Part shown: one piece after another, positions 24,120 through 40,447 of the stretch
Layout: every line of letters begins with the position of its first letter
Position numbering within the stretch: the first letter of the stretch is position 1
Source of the DNA: Tannerellaceae bacterium
GTDB lineage: Bacteria; Bacteroidota; Bacteroidia; Bacteroidales; Tannerellaceae
Direction of reading: 5' to 3'
Length of the DNA: 64,000 nucleotides
Assembly: GCA_021201295.1 (NCBI GenBank)
Contig: JAJQFE010000021.1
Coordinates: 8,208 to 72,207, forward strand
Position numbers and translations under genes: made by a program
Notes under the pieces: model-generated
What the model was told of the DNA's origin: nothing
Database searches by the model: none
The model's input: the letters and a program-made list of their open reading frames with translations, nothing else

Positions 24120-24725
24120 CTATTTCAGGTCATACGATAATTTAATCGCATATCTGTTCAAAATCTTACTTCCTTCATCTGCACATACACCCCGCATAAA
24201 TGTAAATAACACGGTGTTGTAGACTTCCGTATTGGAATGATTACAGAAGGATTTGGAAGGATGAAGCATTTTGGCCTGCTCCTTGGCCAGTAAGGCAACA
24301 ATTTCGAAATTTATATCATCCCGAAGCACGCCTTCCTTTACTCCCCGGGCAAATAACCGTTTACATCTGGAGATAAATTTGTTTTTTTCATCCTCTTTTT
24401 GCTGAAGAGCCTTCGGATATTTTTTCAGATCCTCATAAAAACGTGGATGATACCAGCGGGGCCGTTTCATTAATTCCATATAGGCCAGTAATATGATATC
24501 TATCGCTGTAGGAGAGGTTTTCTCCAGTTTGGTTAATAATGCATGTAACCAGTCCTGATTGTATAAAATCCCTTCGATCAGTAATGTCTCTTTATCACTG
24601 AAGAATTCATACAAAGTCCGTTTAGAGATACTCACAGCACGTGCAATGTCATCCATGCTTACGCTCTTGATCCCATGCTGGGAAAACAGATCCATTACTG
24701 TCACTATGATGCGTTCTTTTACCAC
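24120..24725 (-). CDS. TetR/AcrR-family transcriptional regulator
   Basis: 201-aa ORF. N-terminal HTH FSQHGIKSVSMDDIARAVSISKRTLYEFF. Confidence 0.85.
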   Translation of the reverse strand: MVKERIIVTVMDLFSQHGIKSVSMDDIARAVSISKRTLYEFFSDKETLLIEGILYNQDWLHALLTKLEKTSPTAIDIILLAYMELMKRPRWYHPRFYEDLKKYPKALQQKEDEKNKFISRCKRLFARGVKEGVLRDDINFEIVALLAKEQAKMLHPSKSFCNHSNTEVYNTVLFTFMRGVCADEGSKILNRYAIKLSYDLK

Positions 24726-28003: not shown

Positions 28004-30027
28004 ATGAGACAAAGACAATTGTATCAACCGAATGTCTATTGCTTTAAGAGATTTATGCGAAAAGGCTATGGCGCATTTGCCAGTTTGCGCAGGGTGGTAA
28101 ACATTGGAGTGGTTGGAGGCGCTGTGCTAACTTGTATGCCTGTGTCGACTACATCTGCCCAACAGGTTACCGGAAAAGAACAACCAAAAGTAATGGAACA
28201 GGAGCTGGATGAAGTGATGGTGACTGCTTCCCGAATAGAGACTCCTGTGAATCAAACGGCCAGGTTGGTCACGGTGATTACCAAAGAACAGATTGAGCAG
28301 GCGCCCGTCCGGAGTATTCAGGATCTGTTAGTATATGTTGCTAACATAGATGTCATCCAGCGCGGAGGACATGGCGTGCAAGCCGATATTTCGATCCGTG
28401 GAGGATCTTTTGACCAGAACGCAGTACTACTAAACGGAGTTAACCTTTCCAATTCCCACACAGGCCACTACAGTTTTGACATTCCCGTCAATCTTTCCGA
28501 CATTGAACGTATAGAAATTATTCACGGACCTTCCGCATTAATTTACGGAGCCAGTGCATTTTCCGGAGGAATTCATATTATTACTAAAAAAATGTGGATA
28601 ACCGGTTGTATGCAAATATAGAAGCTGGTATGCATAATCTCCGGGGTGTTGAGGTGCGCGGAGCGGCCGGAATAGGTAAAACCACACATACACTTTCTGC
28701 AGGATACAACTCATCGGAAGGTTATATAGCCAACAGTGATTATGATATTTATAACCTGTTCTGGCAAACTCGTTTGCAGCTAAATGAAACTGATAAACTG
28801 GATCTGAACCTGAGGTTTAATGATAAGAACTATGGAGCGAATACCTTTTATTCTGCTATATATCCGGAACAATATGAACAAACCAGCAGCTATGTGGGCA
28901 CTTTGAAAGGAGAGTTCGAAAAGCGGTTTAAAATGATCCCGATCCTCTATTGGAACTGCCATCATGATCAATTTGACCTGGTCCGGGGAACAGATTTCGG
29001 ACGGAACTTTCACCGGAATGATATGTATGGAGCCAATCTGATCTTTACTTATCCGTCTGTTCTGGGTATCACCAGTCTGGGAGGAGAAATCCGCAAAGAA
29101 GATATCATGAGTAGTGTCCTGGGGAAACCCATGGCAGAACCTCACCGGAAATATGTGATGTACGATGACCGGATCAATACCAGTGTAGCTTTGGAGCATA
29201 CGGTTACCTGGAATCGGTGGATCGCTTCTGCCGGTATCCTGATGAATCACAACACCATATTAAAGGGAACCTATAAATTTTATCCCTCTGTTAATCTAAG
29301 CTACCGCCCGGCAGATGAGGTAAAATTCTACACTTCCTGGAGTCGGTCTACTCGTATGCCTACTTTTACAGATCTTTATTATACCACAGAAACACACCAT
29401 GGAAATGACGGATTACGACCGGAAAGGTCTGAGTCCTGGGATGTGGGAGTGAAATATAATTCCCGGTTAGTAACTGCCTACCTGGCCGGATTTCTTTTAT
29501 GGGGAAGGGATATTATTGACTGGGTCAAGGAAACACCGGAGGCTACCAAATGGGCCTCCTGGAATATGACGAAGATCAATACCCGAGGAATAGAAGCCGG
29601 TGTCAAATTCCGCCTTGGGGAGTTGGTTCCCCTGTTAGGAGAGCCTGCCTCCTTGGCGTTGGATTACGCCCGTATGCATCAATCATGTGACACACAGGAT
29701 CTGATCTCTGTATACAGCCTCAATTACCTGCGGGATAAATTCACCATGAAGTTCAATCACCGCATATGGAATGGTTTCTCTGCGGACTGGTATTTCCGCT
29801 TCCAGAAACGGATGGGATCTTATGAAAAATATGAAGCGCTGAAAAAAGTAGGGGATGAACCGTACCCGGCTTTTTCCACGCTGGATCTGAAGTTGAATTA
29901 TCAATACCAGGAGATCACCTTTCATCTGACTTTTAATAACCTGTACAATACTCACTATTTCGACCGGGGGAATATTCCCCAGCCTAGCTTTTGGCTGATA
30001 GGTAGGATTAGCTATGTGATTAAGTGA
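28004..30027 (+). pseudogene. TonB-dependent receptor (plug + barrel) split by a frameshift in an A7 tract
   Basis: ORFs 28004..28621 and 28594..30027. ...GGIHIITKK joins NVDNRLYANIEAG... if run 28586..28592 has 8 A instead of 7. Plug motifs DEVMVTASR, IERIEIIHGPSALIYGA. The true start is possibly MRKGYGAF at 28055. Confidence 0.8.
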
Positions 30028-30081
30028 TACTATAGGATTGATAGTAAATAAAAGCTAAGATATTTATTTTTATTTATGATT

Positions 30082-30124
30082 AAAAAAACACCTTAGACTA
30101 ATCCATTTTAGTCTAAGGTGTTTA
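30082..30124. terminator. bidirectional rho-independent terminator
   Basis: AAAAAAA-acaccttagacta-atccattt-tagtctaaggtgt-TTT, a 13-bp perfect stem. It serves the convergent TonB receptor and precursor-peptide genes. Confidence 0.8.
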
Positions 30125-30163
30125 GAATTAGGGAAAGTAATTGTTTTTCCCCTTTTGGCTCAT

Positions 30164-30319
30164 TTAGAAGGTTCTTCCAATAGTACCTCCTGCCGGATTG
30201 ATTTTAAAAGAGTTATTACCATAAGTATAACCTCCTTTTAATTCACTTTGCTCTTGCTCAGTTAGTGTATCCAGCTCTTTCAGTTTGTCTTGGATACTAA
30301 TTTTCTTAAGCTTTTTCAT
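30164..30319 (-). CDS. 51-aa putative RiPP precursor with a double-glycine (GG) leader
   Basis: Own translation (below the 60-aa ORF-track cut-off): MKKLKKISIQDKLKELDTLTEQEQSELKGGYTYGNNSFKINPAGGTIGRTF*. It is the last gene of the minus-strand operon, 57 nt after the protease gene, and is followed by the strong terminator. Confidence 0.7.
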   Translation of the reverse strand: MKKLKKISIQDKLKELDTLTEQEQSELKGGYTYGNNSFKINPAGGTIGRTF

Positions 30320-30376
30320 GCAAATTAAATTTTAAATTAGTAATTGAAAACCGATCACCCAAAAGAGTGATATTCA

Positions 30377-31741
30377 TTAATTGAATTTTATCCACATATC
30401 ACGAAAATTAAATGTGATTTTATCACTTTTTCTTATAATTATGTCTCCTAACATCCCATCACAATGCTGATTAGCTATTATTATATCGTTCTCTGCATCA
30501 GTGTTAATTATGGACTGCGAAGAAAAGAAATCGAGCTGGTTAAATTCGACATAGATATTTTGTGGTTTAAACACCCAGGATTGTTTAATCCCTTGTAGCA
30601 TTAACATATTAAATTTTTCTTTTTGATTTTCATGAAAAGAAAATTTATCACTTTGTTCATAATACCTGTAATTTATATAGAAGTCCTGATTACTTCCTGT
30701 GTCCAGCCAACCAATGAAGTTCGTACTTTCTAATTTGCATTTTAATAACAATTGGTTATCAGCAATAGTAATTAAATTTATATTCTCAGTTATAGGAGAC
30801 GATTGGGAAGGTATCAATAATTTGTTTTGATTAAAATCGAATTGAAATTCATCAATCATCTTCATGATTGAAATACCTAATATTAATCCCAGGCTATCCA
30901 TAAAGTGAGTTGCATTTTCAAATTTTTCTTTTGAATTTTCATTCAGATCCGGAACATTTAGAAAAGAACAAGAAACTATAGAATCAACAGGTACCCAGAC
31001 AGGTACATTATAAATTGTTATATGACCGATTTTTAAACTATCGATCATTCCTTTTTTTGCTTTTAATTCTTTATTATTCACCATTATAGTGTCATGAGAT
31101 GCATATTTAACCCTTATAGAGCTTGCTAATTGCTGGTTTATAAAACATTCTGTTGCACCTGTATCAAAAATGGCTTTTAACTTTGTTTCATTACTAATTA
31201 CTTCAAAATTTAAACCTTCTGTTTTAGGATCGGCAATCAGGTCTAATAGAATATCCTGTTCCGGGGAAGGATTAGTGAGATAGGTTTTAGGTTGCAAATC
31301 GAAAGTGTTCATTTCATCTTTCAGATATAAAAATACAGCTTTCATTTCATCTCCTAATTCAAATTTGTCAGCCAAATGAAATAATATGTCACATATGTCA
31401 GATGCCTTTTTATAGTTCTGAATCTCAATATAATTATTTAGATTTAATCCATACCATTCAATACAATTAGATCCCATAGATTCACCGAACTCTGTAATTA
31501 TCTGGTTGGTTACATCTATTGCTTTAGCTGGTTGATTTGTATAGGTATATATATACGCTTCAGCAGCTAAATTTTCATAACCTGTAATATTGTTTTTGTT
31601 CTTGTCATAATACTCCCTTAATTCTATCCATCTGCGTTCTGAAATAAATTTTAATACTATTTGTTCTGTGAGGTTACCTTGACAAAGTAAAAAACTGCTG
31701 CAAAAAATGCATAAAGTAAATATAAACTTTTTCATGCTCAT
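30377..31741 (-). CDS. secreted two-lobed retropepsin-like aspartic protease with an N-terminal helical domain
   Basis: 454-aa ORF. Signal peptide MSMKKFIFTLCIFCSSFLLCQG. Two catalytic-type motifs, FDTGATECFIN and WLDTGSNQDFYI, each followed by an ILG/MLG segment. Its start overlaps the rSAM stop (TAATG). Confidence 0.65.
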   Translation of the reverse strand: MSMKKFIFTLCIFCSSFLLCQGNLTEQIVLKFISERRWIELREYYDKNKNNITGYENLAAEAYIYTYTNQPAKAIDVTNQIITEFGESMGSNCIEWYGLNLNNYIEIQNYKKASDICDILFHLADKFELGDEMKAVFLYLKDEMNTFDLQPKTYLTNPSPEQDILLDLIADPKTEGLNFEVISNETKLKAIFDTGATECFINQQLASSIRVKYASHDTIMVNNKELKAKKGMIDSLKIGHITIYNVPVWVPVDSIVSCSFLNVPDLNENSKEKFENATHFMDSLGLILGISIMKMIDEFQFDFNQNKLLIPSQSSPITENINLITIADNQLLLKCKLESTNFIGWLDTGSNQDFYINYRYYEQSDKFSFHENQKEKFNMLMLQGIKQSWVFKPQNIYVEFNQLDFFSSQSIINTDAENDIIIANQHCDGMLGDIIIRKSDKITFNFRDMWIKFN

Positions 31742-33586
31742 TATATTAATATGTTTGTGTTAATTATAGATACAATCTCTGTATAATCTTTATTTATATA
31801 AATAAGTCTTTCTTTTTTCAATTCATTCAATATATCTATTATTTCTTCCTGCGGTTTACCAAAAAGGTTTGTTAGATTTTGTAATGAGACTACTTTATTA
31901 TTTGCTTCATCTAATATCTTCCATTCAATAGAATGAGTTTCAAATTCTAATTCGTTGATCATTCTTTCATTATAATATTCTTTATAACGAACAGACTTAT
32001 TATCTATTAAAATTAACTTGTATTCATATTTACTTTTTAAATAATAAGATTCGATTCGTTGAAATTCATACCACAAAGGATGTTCATAACATTTGAACGC
32101 TTCAAGAATATTGAATTCAGGATCTCCTTTTGGTAGATAAGAATCGGATAAATGACTTTTAAAAGGATGACGTTTACTCCAGAGAATTTCATTTTCTCCT
32201 TTTATAAGTTTATAATATCGGCTGGCTTTGGTGACTCCCAGCTCTGAATAATTATGTTCAAACAACTCTTTATGTAAAAAGAACCTGAGGTTATGTAAGT
32301 TTTCAATACTTTCCAAAATATCAGCCTCTGTTTCTTCCAATAAATTTTTAATGATATTTGCACCTCCTACATATATCTGGAATAGGATAGCATATTTAAT
32401 GAAAAGTAAATTACTTGCAAAGCTATTTTTTTTCTCAATTTTTTTGAGTAATGTATCACTGGCAGACTCATATCCTATTTGTATGTGGACAAAGCCTGCT
32501 AATGACATTTTTTTATGAAGTCAAAAGTTATGTCTTTTGTAATTATTTCTGCTAACATAATTTTGAAATCTGGATATTTCTCTTTTAGTTGGATTAATAA
32601 ATTAAGTAGTTTATCAAATCTTTCCAAATCCTTACCAATTACATCGTTATCCAAAAAATGAAAGTTAGAAATATGATAGGTTTTTATCATATATTCCATC
32701 TCTTCTACAATAATTTCAGGAGGTTTTACTCTAAATCGGTAACCCGTATTCAAATAACAGAAATGGCATTTTTCCCAATGACAGCCTCTTCCTCCTTCTA
32801 TAGGGATACCAATGGTTTGAGGATCTATGTTAATCTGATTAAAATAATCGCTATAATCAGGTCTGATTTTTAAAGAAGACATAGAAATATAATTATTATT
32901 ATGGATACCAGTTGTTATAATAATGTTATTTTTTCGATATGCCATATTGGATATTGTATTATAATCTGATGACTTTTCTATACTTTTTGTGAGTAGAAGT
33001 AATGCATTTTCTCCTTCTCCCCATAATGCTATGTCAAATTGGTCAAAATTAGTGAGATAAGCTTTCGCGGCGTCTTTAGTTCTGATTCCCCCTATAACTA
33101 TTGGAATGCCAGGATTGAGTTCTTTTATTTTTTTAGCAATAATACTGGAAAATACCCATTGATATAAATTCACTGATAAACCTATATACAAAAGATCTTC
33201 ATAATTTATACTCTTGATGGTTTCATCTATGAAATTTTTTGTCTTTATATAGTATTCATTCATATGCTCTTTAAAAAAATCCGGATGCATATTAAGGTAT
33301 TGAGGTTTCAGTGTGATGAGAGAGGCTTTAATATTATTAAAGGCTACTTCATCCTTATCTTCATGTGCCAAATAGTTGAAAAACAGGTTTAGAGCATATC
33401 TATTTTGTCAATATTATTTAGACCCCAAACAAATTTTGATTGTAAATCCGAGAATAGAATATTCCAATAAAGAATATCAACCTGATAACCTTCACTTACC
33501 ATAAATGCTTTTAATACAGACATTGGCGGAGATGGGATTTCTATCATGGAAGGAGGAACCCAATTTAATAATATGCGTGTTTTCAT
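31741..33586 (-). pseudogene. B12-binding-domain (class B) radical SAM enzyme, split in three by two homopolymer frameshifts as assembled
   Basis: ORFs 33389..33586, 32499..33371 and 31741..32508. The N-terminus is B12-domain-like (KTRILLNWVPP..., LYIGLSVNLYQW...IPIVIGGI). The Cys motif is GGRGCHWEKCHFCYLN. The joins are restored by one extra A in the coding-strand A4 (plus-strand T 33403..33406: ...NNIDKNRYALNLFFNYLAHED...) and in the A7 (plus-strand T 32508..32514: ...DFIKKMSLAGFVHIQIGYES...). Confidence 0.7.
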
Positions 33587-34356
33587 AAGCTATTTTTGTG
33601 AGATTGATTTAATTCCATACAAGAACTTTTATAAGTTCTGTTTAATTCGTTTTTGGAAATATATACTTGTAGTTCATTACAATAAGTGCTGTTTTCATTC
33701 CTTGGATGTGAAAGATGATATAGAATATTTTTACTTCTATAAATTATGAATTTACGGTTTCTAAATTGATGAAAACGATTGAAATCTTCATCTCCCCATC
33801 CGTAAAAAAGTTCATTTTCTAATCCTGCTTCAATGTATTTTTCTTTATTCATAATGACTGCTCCTCCTACCAGAGATCTATGATGTAAGATTTCCATTCT
33901 CTCCTTATATTTATATAGAATTTTTATCTTTTTCTTTTTTATAAAAAGTTCTCTTACAGGAATGGATGTATTTAAACATACTCCATTATAAGGTATTCCC
34001 ATATCAGCTTTATTCTCTCGCAGCCGTTTAACACATTCAAGTATATATTTTTTCTCAGCAATAATATCGGCATCCCAAATAGCTATAAATTTAGTATTGA
34101 CTTTATTAGCCATTTGATTATAATATTTTGTTTTATGTAATATATAATCTTCATCTTCTACAAATTGATACCGGATCTTTTTCTTCAGTGTTTTCTGTAG
34201 TATATGATTGCAATATTTGTCTGCTTCATATATGTATATATGAGTATGAAAATTATCCATCAGATAGTTCGTGACTAGCAAAATATTTTCAAGTCTTTCA
34301 ATAGAATCTATTCTTACTAACAGAATGAATGTAACATCTGATAAATCTGTTTTCAT
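33583..34356 (-). CDS. GT-A fold glycosyltransferase (GT2 / Glyco_transf_7C-like)
   Basis: 257-aa ORF. VTFILLVRIDS, WDADI (DxD) and the GWGDEDFN motif, which resembles the galactosyltransferase C-terminal family. ATGA overlaps at both ends. Confidence 0.6.
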   Translation of the reverse strand: MKTDLSDVTFILLVRIDSIERLENILLVTNYLMDNFHTHIYIYEADKYCNHILQKTLKKKIRYQFVEDEDYILHKTKYYNQMANKVNTKFIAIWDADIIAEKKYILECVKRLRENKADMGIPYNGVCLNTSIPVRELFIKKKKIKILYKYKERMEILHHRSLVGGAVIMNKEKYIEAGLENELFYGWGDEDFNRFHQFRNRKFIIYRSKNILYHLSHPRNENSTYCNELQVYISKNELNRTYKSSCMELNQSHKNSL

Positions 34357-35375
34357 AATGTATTTTTATAATAGTTGTAAAACAATACTGATCCCAAACC
34401 TCCTTCCATAAGATCCATAAGTTTACTTGACGGTAAATGGAAAATTAGGTTCTCCAATTCCTCTGAATTTTCAATTCTTCTTAATATGTATTTCTTTACC
34501 TGAGGAATATCCTCAGGAATATGATCTTTTAATCGGGATAATAATAAAAAGATACTGATTAATCCGTCCTTTAAATAAATATCTTTATCTCTTAATTCAT
34601 TGTGTATAAGTGTAGTTAGATTTAACTCCTGTTTTCTTTTATAGAAATACTCTTTCCACTCACAATCCTTAAAAATGTAAGAAATATTTAATATTGCCCA
34701 TAAAAGATATAAAAGGTTTCCTTGATTGACGGGTATATATCTTGTAATAGGTAACTTATATTGATTCAGTATTTTCCCTATTCTTTCTCCGAATTTTTCT
34801 GTATTTCCAAGTTTGCTTAAAATGTATAAAAAGAGAGGGACTATGTAGTCTATAGAATAAATAGGAGGCTCTTTAAAAAAGAGAATATCTATTTTTTTGT
34901 GTAATTGATCAAGTATAAGAGAAATGGTTCGATTAAAAAAATATTTATCATCAGAACCTACAGGCTGTTGTTTAACTCGGATTTCCAGATAAAATAATAT
35001 ATGAATTAATGTCTTTATTGGGATTTTCGACAGACTATCAGAATAAGTTACTTGTTTTAATATAATATCATCCATATCTGATAATATAAGATTCTCGTTT
35101 CCCTTAATGAATTCGGCCTTTAGTAAATAATGGATTCCCAGCCCTATGCCAGTCCAACCTGTTTCCATATCTAAAGATAAAGCGGGAGTCAGTTCAAGTG
35201 TTATTTCTTCAAAAAGAATAGTAGCTTTTCTTCTATATTCTTTATCGTCATTTATTTCTCCCATTAGAAAGAAGTAAATACATACACCCATTTTTCCATG
35301 AAATAATCCCAGAGGTAAATTGTGAGTACTGGTACTAAGTATTTTTTCTTCTAATATTTTCCATCTGTCATTCAT
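34353..35375 (-). CDS. hypothetical alpha-helical repeat protein with weak LanC-like Gly-rich helix-start motifs and no Zn ligands
   Basis: 340-aa ORF. GLFHGKMGVCIYFF, GWTGIGLGIHYLL and GGLGSVLFY motifs. No WCxG/CHG motifs. Paralogous to the 35623..36423 product. Confidence 0.35.
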   Translation of the reverse strand: MNDRWKILEEKILSTSTHNLPLGLFHGKMGVCIYFFLMGEINDDKEYRRKATILFEEITLELTPALSLDMETGWTGIGLGIHYLLKAEFIKGNENLILSDMDDIILKQVTYSDSLSKIPIKTLIHILFYLEIRVKQQPVGSDDKYFFNRTISLILDQLHKKIDILFFKEPPIYSIDYIVPLFLYILSKLGNTEKFGERIGKILNQYKLPITRYIPVNQGNLLYLLWAILNISYIFKDCEWKEYFYKRKQELNLTTLIHNELRDKDIYLKDGLISIFLLLSRLKDHIPEDIPQVKKYILRRIENSEELENLIFHLPSSKLMDLMEGGLGSVLFYNYYKNTL

Positions 35376-35622
35376 AATTTGATTTATTATTACAGAAGTG
35401 GTTTATCATAAATAAAATTGTTTGTAAGTTAATAAATTAAAATCTAATTTGAAGCTTATGTTGTGATAAATTAACTAAATGAGTAAATTAAATGATTTGG
35501 ATAATTATTTTCTAAACTATAATAGTTTATGTATTATAATTAATTAATAAATATTATTTTTTTAATTGATAGAGAGATTTTTATATCTTTAGTAACTTTT
35601 TATTTTAAACCGGAATTGTTTT

Positions 35623-36423
35623 ATGAATTACTTACCTCAAATCTCTGAATCTCATTATACTAAAGAATTTAGTATGAGGTCAGGATTAGCCGGGTTATTG
35701 GTATTTTATTTTTATAGTGCAAAATATACTCAACAGGAGTTATATGAGAAGAAAGGATATGATACTTTAGATATCATATTAGAAAGAGTGGCAAAGGGGA
35801 ATTTTACTAATCTTTATATTTTAGTAGAAATAGGGGTAGTTCTCAATTTCCTTGTGCGGGAAGGTTTTTTGGAAGAAGATGATCAATCTATATGGAGTGA
35901 TTTGGATATCAATATATATAAAGAATTATTCCATACATTATATTTTAATTTCGGATTTGAGAACGGTTTATTGAAATTTTACCGTTATTATTTGCAACGA
36001 TCTTCTGCTTATTCAGAAATAGGTCTGAAAATAATTTTGAATCATTTGTTTGGCTGTTTTCGTATTTCAGGGTATAATTCTCATCCAGTTGATGCACTTT
36101 ATCTTTTACCTTCAGATATAATTGAGGATATAAAAATTTTTATTCTGGAATTAGAGAGTAGAAACCTCTTTTATAAAGAAACTACTTTGCTGAAAGAGCT
36201 TTTAAACGAATTTGAAAATAGACAACAGCCTTTACAAACAAATTATCCAGAGTATGAAATTCTTCAAAAATTAAGGAAAACAAAATTTTCTTTACATAGT
36301 ACTATAGAAGTAAAGAAATGGATAGAAATTCTTATTGGCCTTTCTGAGGAGGAAATAATTCGTGGGTTAGCTACTATGAAAATGAATCAACCTCATTTAC
36401 CTGATATTTGGGAATTGCTCTAA
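35623..36423 (+). CDS. hypothetical alpha-helical protein, paralogue of the 34353..35375 product
   Basis: 266-aa ORF. SGLAGLLVFYFY and IGVVLNFLVREGFLEEDDQSIWSDLDINIYKEL align with GKMGVCIYFF and IGLGIHYLLKAEFIKGNENLILSDMDDIILKQV in the paralogue. Confidence 0.35.
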   Translation: MNYLPQISESHYTKEFSMRSGLAGLLVFYFYSAKYTQQELYEKKGYDTLDIILERVAKGNFTNLYILVEIGVVLNFLVREGFLEEDDQSIWSDLDINIYKELFHTLYFNFGFENGLLKFYRYYLQRSSAYSEIGLKIILNHLFGCFRISGYNSHPVDALYLLPSDIIEDIKIFILELESRNLFYKETTLLKELLNEFENRQQPLQTNYPEYEILQKLRKTKFSLHSTIEVKKWIEILIGLSEEEIIRGLATMKMNQPHLPDIWELL

Positions 36424-36433
36424 AACAGAATAA

Positions 36434-37322
36434 ATGCTTATGATACCTGAAATATCTGTTATTATTTCAGTCTATAATGCTGAATCTTATATAGAGGAGT
36501 GTTTAAATTCTGTTATGACTCAAACATTTCGGAATATTGAAGTGGTGCTTATTGATGACGGATCTGAAGATCTTTCAAATGAGATCATGCAGTCTTTTTG
36601 TATAAAAGATAAACGTTTTAAATTATTCAGTCAACCGAATGCCGGAGTATCAGCTGAAAGAAATGAAGGAATAAAAAGATCGACTGGTAGGTATATATTT
36701 TTTCTGGATAGTGATGATACACTTATTTCAACCACATTTGAAGAACTATCTATTCGTACTCATAAAACAGATGCTGATATTATAATGGGAAATATTCTCT
36801 TTTGTACACCGGATGGTAAACAGACAATGCCTTATGAGAGAGAAGAGCCATTTAAGGATGTATTAGAAATTAAGGGAGATATCTGTTATCTGGAACTTAT
36901 GAGAATGAATTCATTTCCTCCTTTAGTTGGTGTATATCTGATTAAAAGATCTTTTCTGTTTAATAATCAATTCTTTTTTTAGGGAGGGAGTAATACATGA
37001 AGATGAGTTATGGTGCATGAACGTTTTGATATTAGCTGATAAAGTTTCTCTTTTGGATTTAATCTATTATTTATACAAACAGAATAGAGAGGAATCTTTG
37101 ATGAATACCAATAATAAAGAATTTCGTATCCATTCACTGGTAGAAATTTCGCAAGAGATTTATTCTTTGGCAAATTCTTTATATAAGCAGAACGTAATTA
37201 ATAAGAATGCAGTAGGTTATGTTTATGCCAGAATATTTCTTCTGTATCATGAAATAGCCAGATTAATAATTGATTTGCCGGGAAAAAAATGTTTAATCTA
37301 TCCATTTTTGACCATATACTAA
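36434..37322 (+). pseudogene. family-2 glycosyltransferase, frameshifted in a T7 tract as assembled
   Basis: ORFs 36434..36982 and 37017..37322. ISVIISVYNAESYIEECLNSV, VLIDDGSED, GVSAERNEGI and FLDSDD motifs. ...NNQFFF joins REGVIHEDELWCMNVLI... if run 36974..36980 has 6 T instead of 7. Confidence 0.75.
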
Positions 37323-37445
37323 AGTGTTCTTATAGTAAATTAAATTATAAACAACAAAAATATGTTTTAAATATCTATTGTTTAGCTACTTATCTTATGA
37401 AATGTTTTAATTAACTGTAAAAGTATGACTTTCTAACAATAGTAC

Positions 37446-38136: not shown

Positions 38137-38413
38137 TCAGGAAATGTATCCGACACAGAGAAGGTAAATTTTCATAAATAGAAGTATGATTTAGGAATGG
38201 GGGTTTGTTATGTCCAAAATAAAAAATCGTTAGCTTTTCATCTGTATTTAACTTATTTTCTTATCTGCAGAAGTCTATGTGATTTGCATGATCCTGTGCT
38301 CTAATTATTTTAGTGTCAGATGCATTGCCTTCCTGATTTTATTCTTCGGCAGATTTTCTTTTTTATGACTCTTTTAACCGTAGATTTCATCTAAAATGTT
38401 CATCTTTGTAAAG

Positions 38414-39679
38414 ATGAAAGAAGGAATTCTGGATAAGTTGAAAATCCTGGCGGAGTCGGCCAAATATGATGTTTCCTGTGCTTCCAGTGGTACAACCCAG
38501 AAGAGTCAGAAGGGAGGAATCGGTAGTGCACATGGCTGGGGTATCTGTCATTCGTTTACCGAAGACGGGCGCTGTGTATCATTGCTTAAGATCATGATGA
38601 CCAACTATTGTATGTTTGATTGTGCTTATTGTGTGAACAGGCGAAGCAATGATATTCCCCGTGCGACGATGACAGTCCGTGAATTGGTGGAACTGACCAT
38701 TGAATTCTACCGGAGAAATTATATTGAAGGATTGTTTCTGAGTTCCGGGGTAATCCATAGTTCGGATCATACGATGGAACGTATGGTACGGGTTTTAAAA
38801 GAGCTGCGTACTATCCATAAATATAATGGGTATATTCATATGAAAAGTATTCCCGGAGCGAGCCGGGAACTGGTGAATGAAGCCGGACTTTATGCCGATC
38901 GTCTGAGTGTAAATCTGGAGATTGCCAGAGAGGATAATCTCAAATTGCTGGCTCCGGAAAAAGACCACCAGAGTATTTACCAGCCAATGGCCTATATTTA
39001 TCAGGGTGTCCTGGCCAGCCTGGAGGAACGAAAACACTTTAAACATGCCCCTCGGTTTGCTCCGGCAGGACAAAGTACTCAGATGATCATTGGAGCTACG
39101 AGTGAAACGGACCGGGAGATACTCCAATTGTCTACTGCTTTATATAGAAGGCCCAGTATTAAACGGGTCTATTATTCCGGATATATTCCAGTGAACTCTT
39201 ATGATGCCCGCCTGCCGGCTTTGAAGCAAGCTCCCTTAGTCAGGGAGAACCGCTTATACCAGGCGGACTGGCTTATGCGTTTTTATGGTTTTCAGGAAAA
39301 TGAGATCGTAGATGATTCCTATCCGAATTTAGATCTGGAAGTGGACCCCAAACTGGCATGGGCACTTCGGCATCCGGATAAATTTCCGGTGGATCTGAAT
39401 AAGGCAGAGTATGCCATGATCCTGCGGGTTCCCGGTATTGGTATAAAGTCGGCTAAACTGATCATTGCTACCCGGCGGTATGGTAAGATCACAGCCTCTA
39501 CTTTGAAAAAAATAGGTGTAGTGATGAAAAAGGCGCAGTTTTTCATCACTTGTCATGAGTTACCCCGGGTTACGGTCCATGAAGCTCATCCGGAGTATGT
39601 TCGTCAATTCCTTACCCAAAAGAAAAGTGCTAAAAAAGAATCGGACCAGCGACAATTGTCTATTCTGTTTCCGGATTAA
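38414..39679 (+). CDS. putative DNA modification/repair radical SAM protein (TIGR03916-like)
   Basis: ORF track 38396..39679; the likely start is MKEGILDKLKIL at 38414. It has a CMFDCAYCVNR CxxxCxxC motif and a C-terminal helix-hairpin-helix-like region. Confidence 0.7.
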   Translation: MKEGILDKLKILAESAKYDVSCASSGTTQKSQKGGIGSAHGWGICHSFTEDGRCVSLLKIMMTNYCMFDCAYCVNRRSNDIPRATMTVRELVELTIEFYRRNYIEGLFLSSGVIHSSDHTMERMVRVLKELRTIHKYNGYIHMKSIPGASRELVNEAGLYADRLSVNLEIAREDNLKLLAPEKDHQSIYQPMAYIYQGVLASLEERKHFKHAPRFAPAGQSTQMIIGATSETDREILQLSTALYRRPSIKRVYYSGYIPVNSYDARLPALKQAPLVRENRLYQADWLMRFYGFQENEIVDDSYPNLDLEVDPKLAWALRHPDKFPVDLNKAEYAMILRVPGIGIKSAKLIIATRRYGKITASTLKKIGVVMKKAQFFITCHELPRVTVHEAHPEYVRQFLTQKKSAKKESDQRQLSILFPD

Positions 39680-39685
39680 ACGACT

Positions 39686-40447
39686 ATGTTGATATTTATT
39701 TATGATAAAACATTTGAAGGGTTATTGACAGCTGTTTTTGATGCCTATAACCGGAGGATGTTTCCTGATAAACTGATAGGAGAAGGCGAACCGGAACCTT
39801 TGTTTACTCAGGAGGTTCACCGGGTGATCAATGACCCGGAGAAATCCAACCGGGTCTGGAGTGGAGTACAACAGAAAATCTCTAAGCATGCCTGTAATAT
39901 GTTGTTATGTGTCTGGTTGTCTGAGTTGCCGGGGTGTGATGAATTAATTTTGAGGTATGTCCGGAAAGTATTTGACAGGTCCTATTCTATTGAGATGAAT
40001 TTTGCCGATGATGATGTTCTGGAGGTAACTAAAATTGCCCGGAAAGTAGGGAAAGAAAAGCACTATCTGATGGAGTTTGTCCGCTTTCAGAAGGCATCGG
40101 ATGATGTTTTTTTTGCTCCGGTTTCTCCTCTGTATAATGCACTTCCATTAGCGATCTCTTTTTTTAAAGACCGTTTCTCTTATCAGAAGTGGATCATTTA
40201 TGATATCAAGCGAAAGTATGGCTATTATTATGACCTGAAAACCGTGGAGGAAATCATGTTATCGGATGATACCCATTTATTAACCGGAAAGCTGAATGAA
40301 GATCTGATGGCACAGGATGAGAAACTATTTCAGGATCTATGGAAAAACTACTTTGGTGCTTTGACGATCCGGGAACGAATTAATCCTAAACTTCAACGTC
40401 AGCATATGCCCCGGCGTTTCTGGAAATTCCTGACGGAGAAGCAATAA
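39686..40447 (+). CDS. DUF4130 / TIGR03915-like putative DNA metabolism protein (partner of the radical SAM gene)
   Basis: 253-aa ORF MLIFIYDKTFEGLLTAVFDAYNRR... 6 nt downstream of the rSAM gene. From memory, this is a conserved gene pair. Confidence 0.65.
   Translation: MLIFIYDKTFEGLLTAVFDAYNRRMFPDKLIGEGEPEPLFTQEVHRVINDPEKSNRVWSGVQQKISKHACNMLLCVWLSELPGCDELILRYVRKVFDRSYSIEMNFADDDVLEVTKIARKVGKEKHYLMEFVRFQKASDDVFFAPVSPLYNALPLAISFFKDRFSYQKWIIYDIKRKYGYYYDLKTVEEIMLSDDTHLLTGKLNEDLMAQDEKLFQDLWKNYFGALTIRERINPKLQRQHMPRRFWKFLTEKQ

Follow-up and report, generated by a model that had tools for sequence, protein, structure and literature searches.

Peptides with a double-glycine (GG) leader that are matured by radical S-adenosylmethionine (rSAM) enzymes are well known among the peptides that ribosomes make and that are modified after translation (RiPPs), and so are cobalamin (B12)-dependent rSAM methyltransferases. 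In this work we analyzed a 64,000-nucleotide (nt) stretch from a Tannerellaceae bacterium (GCA_021201295.1, contig JAJQFE010000021.1, positions 8,208 to 72,207 of the forward strand; hereafter, the window) and, within it, a 51-codon open reading frame (ORF) on the minus strand that lies beside genes for an rSAM enzyme, a glycosyltransferase (GT) and a protease. We consider it likely that this ORF encodes the precursor of a RiPP from an uncatalogued Bacteroidales family, for which a modification route can be proposed, and that the pathway is probably off in this genome.

The "GG-Bacteroidales" precursors of TIGR04149 occur in the context of a TIGR04148 SPASM rSAM enzyme and a TIGR04150 pseudo-rSAM partner (PMC4573289). 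The locus studied here shares with them a Bacteroidales host, a Lys-rich N-terminus, a Gly-Gly leader of about 30 residues and an rSAM partner, whereas its rSAM enzyme is of the cobalamin type, the SPASM/pseudo-rSAM pair is missing, and the cores of its peptide family are Cys-poor and Phe-terminated. By hidden Markov model comparison, the nearest enzyme family is TIGR03975, that of the B12-rSAM C-methyltransferases PoyB and PoyC of the proteusin/polytheonamide pathway. Proteusins also resemble the present system in having a class B rSAM enzyme and a core rich in β-branched residues. Unlike in proteusins, the rSAM enzymes here score 150-190 bits against a cutoff of 281.85 and have a C-terminal domain of their own, and the GG leader is short (30 residues), with no match to the NHLP or Nif11 models of NCBIfam.

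In lanthipeptides, a two-step leader removal is established, first by a peptidase-containing ATP-binding cassette (ABC) transporter of the C39 type (PCAT) and then by an extracellular protease (PMC10885120). The class II systems described there (LicT/LicP, CylB/CylA) have in common with ours a GG leader, a PCAT (in 44 of the 71 peptide loci presented below) and a second exported protease beside the precursor. Our system differs in its second protease, an aspartic enzyme and not a serine or metalloprotease, in a core free of Cys and lanthionine, and in the lack of a PCAT gene in the window. A search for lanthipeptide features in the cluster revealed a Cys-free core and no LanC with zinc ligands, and the LanM and LanKC models matched at E≈0.01 only. 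Genome mining with BAGEL4 has reported Bacteroidales areas of interest of the type "rSAM + LanC + GlyS", 25 of them in Tannerellaceae (PMC10352776). As in our cluster, the LanC-like proteins of these areas lack zinc ligands, a GT and precursors of the GG type are present, and a PCAT is sometimes missing, whereas the curated clusters of that study carry pseudo-rSAM partners of the TIGR04150 type; B12 and aspartic proteases are not mentioned in it. Finally, darobactin and dynobactin are rSAM-made mimics of the β-signal that block BamA, the β-signal of outer membrane proteins (OMPs) having the consensus GXXΦXΦ (PMC13067283). They resemble the present system as rSAM-matured RiPPs of Gram-negative producers, and the C-termini GITYRF and GHTHRF of our family resemble both the dynobactin end ...SYRF and the GXXΦXΦ consensus. 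Unlike darobactin, the family is associated with a class B enzyme rather than the SPASM enzyme DarE, and its peptides are much longer and have no Trp crosslink motif. A search of the literature, subscription-only papers lying outside it, returned nothing specific on the enzyme, peptide and protease found together here. What sets the present system apart is the combination of a short GG leader and a Cys-free, Phe-terminated core with a class B rSAM enzyme that has a C-terminal domain of its own, and with either a secreted aspartic protease or a Plug/barrel OMP.

The precursor gene (30319→30164, minus strand) starts at ATG 30319-30317, with no in-frame start codon found upstream of it, ends at TAA 30166-30164 and encodes the 51-amino acid (aa) peptide MKKLKKISIQDKLKELDTLTEQEQSELKGGYTYGNNSFKINPAGGTIGRTF. 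Its leader (residues 1-30, positions 30230-30319) ends in LKGG at residues 27-30, and its 21-residue core (residues 31-51, positions 30167-30229) is YTYGNNSFKINPAGGTIGRTF, which is Cys-free, contains PAGGT (within NPAGGTIGRTF) and ends in RTF. Coordinates, strand, translation, LKGG leader and Cys-free core all agreed exactly with the original prediction, which had been made from the letters of the stretch. The prediction had also described the ORF as missing from the ORF track; this was true, but it reflected only the 60-aa length threshold of that track, and the same protein sequence already has an entry, hypothetical protein LUG96_05250, in the annotation of a metagenome-assembled genome (MAG) from Tannerellaceae.

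A word-indexed homologue search with the peptide returned this identical protein as the sole match, and the neighboring genes were therefore used as search anchors. GTDB genomes and metagenomes were scanned with an alignment of intact rSAM homologues, which yielded 119 rSAM-anchored loci; small ORFs beside the rSAM gene encoded GG-leader peptides in 71 of them, belonging to many genera and amounting to 44 unique sequences. A family profile was then built from 42 related peptides, leaving out both the window peptide and its orthologue in locus L104. Among the 377 small ORFs of the window, this profile matched the precursor ORF with 46.2 bits (E=7.4e-14), the runner-up having an E-value of 0.69, and positions 1-30 of a leader-only profile aligned to residues 1-30 of the peptide (E=2e-9) with the Gly-Gly in register. 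These matches allowed us to identify the 51-codon ORF, by its sequence conservation, as a real, conserved gene with the leader/core boundary at G30, and they support the predicted nature of the peptide as a double-glycine-leader RiPP precursor. No second precursor was found when the window was scanned with the family profile. The L104 orthologue, which was retrieved via the rSAM gene independently of peptide identity and is hence usable as evidence of selection, differs from the window peptide in a single residue (S37T), with 2 synonymous changes and 1 nonsynonymous change and a ratio of nonsynonymous to synonymous substitution rates (dN/dS) of 0.13. The synonymous-only changes seen in loci L005-L013 were rejected as evidence of selection, since these loci had been retrieved by exact peptide identity.

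The peptide family is widespread among gut Bacteroidales, with members found in B. fragilis, Prevotella/Segatella, Alistipes/Tidjanibacter and dozens of human-gut metagenome contigs. Their leaders have about 30 residues, with the consensus MKKKKIFSLKELLKLIDRLTNDELNQIKGG, and their cores have 12-61 residues, are rich in Pro, Ile, Thr, Gly, Ser and Val, and contain Cys in only 3 of 42 cases. Phe is the C-terminal residue of 25 of the 42 cores, compared to 6.5% of background small ORFs, and an end of the type Φ-x-aromatic fits 22 of them; typical C-termini are …SPGTVGHTHRF, …KPGIIGITYRF, …QITVGATVKF and …GTVTIAVSF. The window core is likewise Cys-free and Phe-terminal, with Arg at position -3 (…GRTF). 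In B. fragilis, where the gene order is rSAM-GT2-aspartic protease-peptide, the peptide is a clear family member that ends in …KPGGGGTINGTITF. By comparison with it, the second GG of the window core (PAGGT), which the original prediction had pointed out, is part of a conserved C-terminal motif and not a second cleavage site.

None of the available family models covers these peptides. No Pfam family matched the window peptide (E≤10) or four relatives, PF14406 giving no match, and the generic GG-leader models TIGR01847, PF10439 and ComC, which include the bacteriocin-type leader models named in the original prediction, did not match the window peptide at E≤1 in NCBIfam or E≤10 in Pfam; a few relatives showed sub-threshold matches to class II bacteriocin and ComC leader models. 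The comparison with TIGR04149, set beforehand as a test that could refute the prediction, narrowly failed (23.6 bits versus a cutoff of 25; E=3.5e-5, residues 1-34), and none of 10 relatives passed this model either (at most 20 bits or no match). By sequence, then, the precursor belongs to an uncatalogued Bacteroidales RiPP family, for which neither Pfam nor NCBIfam has a model.

A second sub-architecture of the family was observed in three loci (L058:9486-9939, L117:6138-6919 and L037:568-1034), in which 2-3 tandem precursors with very short cores of 12-22 aa (e.g., KVSGTVTIAVSF) lie upstream of the rSAM gene and are followed by a Plug/barrel protein, with a PCAT and an HlyD-like gene also present in L037 and L058.

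The rSAM gene of the window (31741-33586, minus strand) encodes a cobalamin-type (class B) enzyme and is disrupted, two 1-nt deletions in A-runs near 33406 and 32514 splitting it into three ORFs (33389-33586, 32499-33371 and 31741-32508). After correction of both frameshifts, the 616-aa protein aligned end to end, with about 50% identity, to hundreds of intact Bacteroidales proteins of about 625 aa, and the Cys triad C273, C278 and C281 was invariant in the alignment. TIGR03975 was the best model; the window protein, once corrected, scored 171.5 bits against it, and intact homologues scored 153.6-191.5 bits. The Pfam models B12-binding and Radical_SAM matched the 290-aa middle fragment, both under their gathering cutoffs. 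An AlphaFold2 (AF2) model of the rSAM homologue P0005 had a predicted local distance difference test score (pLDDT) of 88.9, and its top Foldseek matches were cobalamin-dependent rSAM enzymes only (TsrM, OxsB, TokK, MgmA and CysS). The partner enzyme is therefore a class B rSAM protein related to TIGR03975 but outside it. The C-terminal residues of the P0005 model (about 95) are arranged as β-β-β-α-α-α, a predicted β3-α3 module that looks like a RiPP recognition element (RRE). No cobalamin riboswitch or any other Rfam family was detected between 26000 and 39000.

The rSAM enzyme family is also present in other contexts, as observed in locus L139 (Odoribacter splanchnicus), where the neighbor of an rSAM homologue (P0124; 44% identity, 551 member sequences) is another radical SAM gene, of 345 aa, and no peptide with a GG leader was seen nearby.

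Separated from the peptide gene by a spacer of 57 nt, as predicted, is the gene of a 454-aa secreted aspartic protease (30377-31741, minus strand; Pfam Asp_protease_2, 45.1 bits). The protein begins with a lipoprotein-type signal (…SSFLLC|QGN), followed by a helical N-domain and two retropepsin-like lobes with the motifs FDTGAT and LDTGSN, and both D[TS]G motifs were invariant in 11 homologues. The signal peptide together with the two D[TS]G motifs identifies an exported pepsin-like pseudo-dimer and not a GG-leader peptidase of the C39 type, and no PCAT is encoded in the 64 kb. The coupling of the peptide to its neighbors was borne out at the family level: in addition to the 71 of 119 rSAM-anchored loci that carry a peptide, an aspartic protease or, replacing it, a Plug/barrel protein was present in 62 of the 71 peptide loci. 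The protease adjoins the rSAM gene in 54 of the 119 loci, and in other loci a free Plug/barrel protein of about 680 aa stands in its place. A C39-ABC exporter occurs in 44 and an HlyD-like protein in 29 of the 71 peptide loci; tblastn searches for a PCAT, an HlyD protein or a barrel partner gene in the window were negative. The protease family is small (265 representatives among 1.84 billion proteins). A word-indexed search with the protease yielded nothing beyond two distant relatives, whose genomic contexts (CAT/AraC and GH28) are unrelated, and its alignment was too divergent to seed a metagenome scan. In two Prevotella MAGs (L028:13135-16194 and L055:10165-13224), a 1019-aa fusion of an aspartic protease, a Plug domain and an OMP_b-brl_3 barrel was observed beside the rSAM gene, which ties the protease physically to the outer membrane.

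The operon runs on the minus strand in the order p340-GT-rSAM-protease-57-nt spacer-peptide-terminator, with start/stop overlaps at 34353-34356, 33583-33586 and 31741. Its first gene, p340 (34353-35375, minus strand), encodes an all-alpha protein with a sub-cutoff match to LANC_like (17.5 bits versus 23.2). In a 6-sequence alignment it has no CH motif and no conserved Cys, the zinc-ligand Cys/His motifs being absent, and it matched no PDB sequence; its single-sequence AF2 model reached a pLDDT of only 53.6. The second gene (33583-34356, minus strand), whose start and stop overlap the neighboring genes, encodes a 257-aa GT of the GT-A type with a DAD motif, matching Pfam Glyco_transf_7C with 24.3 bits (cutoff 23) and Glycos_transf_2 with 19.4 bits, below cutoff. 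Homologues of GT and p340 were found beside the rSAM gene in L020, L022, L024, L052, L061, L100 and L104, a GT/p340 pair of the window type thus being present in a minority of loci only (6-7). Of the original prediction of the peptide as substrate of the adjacent rSAM and GT enzymes, the genomic coupling was supported for the rSAM enzyme, at the level of the family, and in a minority of loci for the GT.

Divergent from the operon are p266 (35623-36423, plus strand), a distant p340 paralogue with a weak LanC-like N-terminus (LANC_like below cutoff, without zinc ligands), and a GT2-family glycosyltransferase (36434-37322, plus strand; Pfam Glycos_transf_2, 114.8 bits). In the window, an extra A near 36980 breaks the latter into ORFs of 182 and 101 aa, whereas in L104 it is a single ORF of 286 aa. 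All these genes sit on a horizontally acquired low-GC island (about 30080-37400; 27-30% GC versus 40-46% in the flanks) that delimits the gene cluster and in which A/T homopolymers of at least 7 nt occur at 1.64 per kb, compared to 0.57-0.79 per kb outside.

The state of the cluster was assessed by comparing the window with related strains. In L104 (95.3% identity to the window), the only rSAM lesion is at 33134 and the reading frame is kept at 33406 and 32514; in L006-type strains (about 99% identity), the lesions are at 33406, 32685 and 32433, and position 32514 is in frame. Since the lesion sites differ between lineages, the ancestral rSAM gene was intact and each sampled lineage has been broken differently. 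Protease, GT and p340 are intact in the window and broken in some sister strains, the A-run of p340 at 34898 occurring as n-1, n and n+1 alleles, while peptide, protease and GT are free of indels in both the window and L104. Between the window and L104, dN/dS values were 0-0.15 for the rSAM segments, 0.20 for the protease and 0.20 for the GT, and across the cluster genes with A/T-run indels (rSAM, p340 and GT2; window, L104 and L005-L011) they were 0-0.4. Such low values over about 4% divergence indicate that selection acted until very recently. With its rSAM gene split by two frameshifts, this genome probably does not make the modification, and the two frameshifts together with the split GT2 gene and the lack of an exporter in the window suggest that the pathway is probably crippled, off or dying in this strain. 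Parallel decay of very recent date, slippage that can revert, a rescue through slippage in transcription, and homopolymer errors of the assembly are all possible readings of the indel pattern.

Similar homopolymer indels were found outside the island, which favors a lineage-wide tendency over a dedicated switch. They affect a TetR-family regulator (24120-24725, minus strand) upstream of RND efflux genes, which is intact in the window (201 aa) and frameshifted at a T7 run near 24382 in L005, L008 and L009, and a TonB-dependent receptor (28004-30027, plus strand) convergent with the cluster, in which an A7 run near 28585 separates a Plug ORF (205 aa) from a barrel ORF (477 aa). This split is common to the window and all sister strains; the sisters carry two nearby indels relative to the window (28585 and 28563), and their receptor is still split.

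The leading rival explanation is that the cluster is a remnant, already non-functional in the lineage and without a mature product, whose precursor is intact only because it is short; we rate this at a little under an even chance. It would account for the one, two or three rSAM frameshifts at differing sites in L104, the window and L006, for the broken p340, GT and protease genes of sister strains, for the split GT2 gene and the missing exporter of the window, and for the frequency of indels in L006, about 1 per kb in the island versus 0.3-0.4 per kb in the flanks. It is opposed by the low dN/dS values of the rSAM, protease and GT genes, which point to recent selection, and by the indel-free peptide, protease and GT genes of the window and L104. 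Moreover, the rSAM lesions without exception, and the majority of the others, are located in A/T homopolymers, and this pattern, with the three p340 alleles, would also fit reversible slippage or sequencing error. A further explanation is that the population keeps a working pathway, either because the A-run frameshifts act as reversible, phase-variation-like switches of the slipped-strand type or because transcriptional slippage bypasses them. The strong purifying selection in spite of a frameshift in every sampled lineage, the confinement of the lesions to A/T runs of 5-8, the three length alleles at 34898 and a homopolymer density 2-3 times that of the flanks speak in its favor. We nevertheless regard it as unlikely, because reversion is improbable when a gene has two or three lesions at once and because indels of the same type in the TetR and TonB receptor genes suggest that the lineage in general is a homopolymer mutator or rich in pseudogenes. 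For efficient transcriptional slippage, runs of 7-8 A are also short. The main use of the window copy is as a natural example of a recently selected cluster whose genes are being inactivated, or switched on and off, at poly-A runs.

For the RiPP pathway that we favor, the following route can be proposed. The leader would dock on the rSAM enzyme, possibly via the RRE-like C-terminal β3-α3 module, and the enzyme would then alkylate, most likely C-methylate, core residues of Ile, Val or Thr at unactivated carbons, by analogy with TIGR03975 enzymes of the PoyB/PoyC type. The GT would add a sugar to a hydroxyl or amide side chain of the core. A C39-ABC exporter encoded outside the island would cleave after the Gly-Gly and export the peptide, and the extracytoplasmic aspartic protease would subsequently trim the variable N-terminal part of the core and free the conserved C-terminal segment, these last two steps being modeled on the two-step leader removal of lanthipeptides (PMC10885120).

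Several observations weigh against this proposal. The leader fails the curated TIGR04149 cutoff, no peptide was detected in 48 of the 119 rSAM loci (some of them truncated contigs, others different contexts such as that of Odoribacter), and the G-R-T-F end of the window core lacks the hydrophobic residue common in the family at position -3. The rSAM enzyme is below the TIGR03975 cutoff and matches about 430 of the 606 model positions only; the putative methylation chemistry and glycosylation sites are assigned from family resemblance only, and the candidate RRE from secondary-structure topology alone. The RiPP protease review cited above contains no mention of an aspartic protease (PMC10885120), and without precedent there the role of the protease in maturation is a guess. 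As regards the state of the pathway, the rSAM dN/dS is 0-0.15, and to read the pathway as dead may therefore be mistaken if the A-run indels can revert, are rescued, or stem from the assembly.

The remaining explanations concern the identity of the peptide. It might be an unmodified double-glycine bacteriocin or signaling peptide, exported by a PCAT encoded elsewhere and unrelated to the neighboring enzymes, as the GG leader, the weak matches of some relatives to class II bacteriocin and ComC leader models and the broken rSAM gene would allow. This is very unlikely, given the synteny with rSAM genes conserved across genera, the position of the precursor as last gene of an operon on a single island, the lack of an immunity gene or PCAT nearby, and the failure of the window peptide to match any generic GG-leader model. 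Even less probable, to the point of being nearly discounted, is that the peptide is an ordinary TIGR04149 member and the substrate of a TIGR04148 SPASM rSAM enzyme with a TIGR04150 pseudo-rSAM partner: TIGR04149 is indeed its best database match, but the score lies below cutoff, 0 of 10 relatives pass, the partner enzyme is of class B, and the window contains no SPASM or pseudo-rSAM gene, its other rSAM gene belonging to a TIGR03916/TIGR03915 DNA-repair pair. A chance ORF, as a short frame in DNA of 29% GC might suggest, is already refuted for practical purposes by the leave-out profile match (E=7.4e-14), the protein-level conservation across genera and the terminator that the gene has of its own.

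Returning to the RiPP family, its conserved C-terminus raised the idea that the products are outer-membrane-directed β-strand peptides which mimic the C-terminal β-signal of Bacteroidota OMPs. The family C-terminus …T-[IV]-G-x-T-[YHV]-[RK]-F is similar to the last strands of the Plug/barrel proteins encoded with it (…LTFIWRF and …SFVYRF) and to the end of dynobactin (WNSNVHSYRF), and a relaxed G-x-x-Φ-x-aromatic end was found in 9 of 42 family members versus 0.64% of the background. The window core (GRTF) does not fit GXXΦXΦ, being two residues short of the motif. On balance we regard the β-signal idea as rather improbable. According to it, alkylation by the B12-rSAM enzyme would stiffen the peptide, the aspartic protease would free it, and its docking site would be BamA or a different barrel in Bacteroidales competitors; if this were true, the family would be the gut-commensal counterpart of darobactin, made by a different enzyme class. 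More generally, should the proposed steps be true, the family would represent a radical alkylation chemistry that is new and acts on β-strand peptides, the first case of an aspartic protease that takes part in maturing a RiPP, and possibly an outer-membrane-targeted activity relevant to competition among gut Bacteroidales.

A second rSAM gene of the window (38396-39679) was considered as partner of the peptide and rejected, as it matches TIGR03916 with 646.8 bits. Together with its TIGR03915 partner it forms a putative DNA modification/repair pair (38396-40447, plus strand) just outside the island, which could be mistaken for RiPP cluster genes. When the window was compared with L012 (GCA_020860305) over 28594-30376, divergence was about 2% in the protease and peptide genes and 13.7% in the adjacent barrel of the TonB receptor; this jump at the island edge is a recombination or horizontal-transfer boundary.

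With regard to transcription, matches to σ70-type promoters were not enriched (37 found versus 40.5 expected), and neither the intergenic region between p340 and p266 nor the protease-peptide spacer nor the 3' end of the protease gene contained the Bacteroides-type motif TAnnTTTG. The spacer (30320-30376, minus strand) contains a small hairpin, AUCACUC…GGGUGAU, followed by CGGUUUUC; this hairpin could be a weak attenuator that sets the ratio of enzyme to precursor transcript. The operon ends in an intrinsic terminator (30123-30086, minus strand) that begins 40 nt past the stop codon, with a 13-bp stem, both as originally predicted. The 13 pairs are perfect and become 16 with an A/U extension, the loop has 6 nt, and a T7 run follows. 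The stem is invariant in L104, L005, L006 and L012, and the loop alone varies: in L012, AATGGA (window 30102-30107) is replaced by TCCATT, its exact reverse complement, that is, a hairpin-loop inversion, and the loop of L104 differs again from those of the window and L012.

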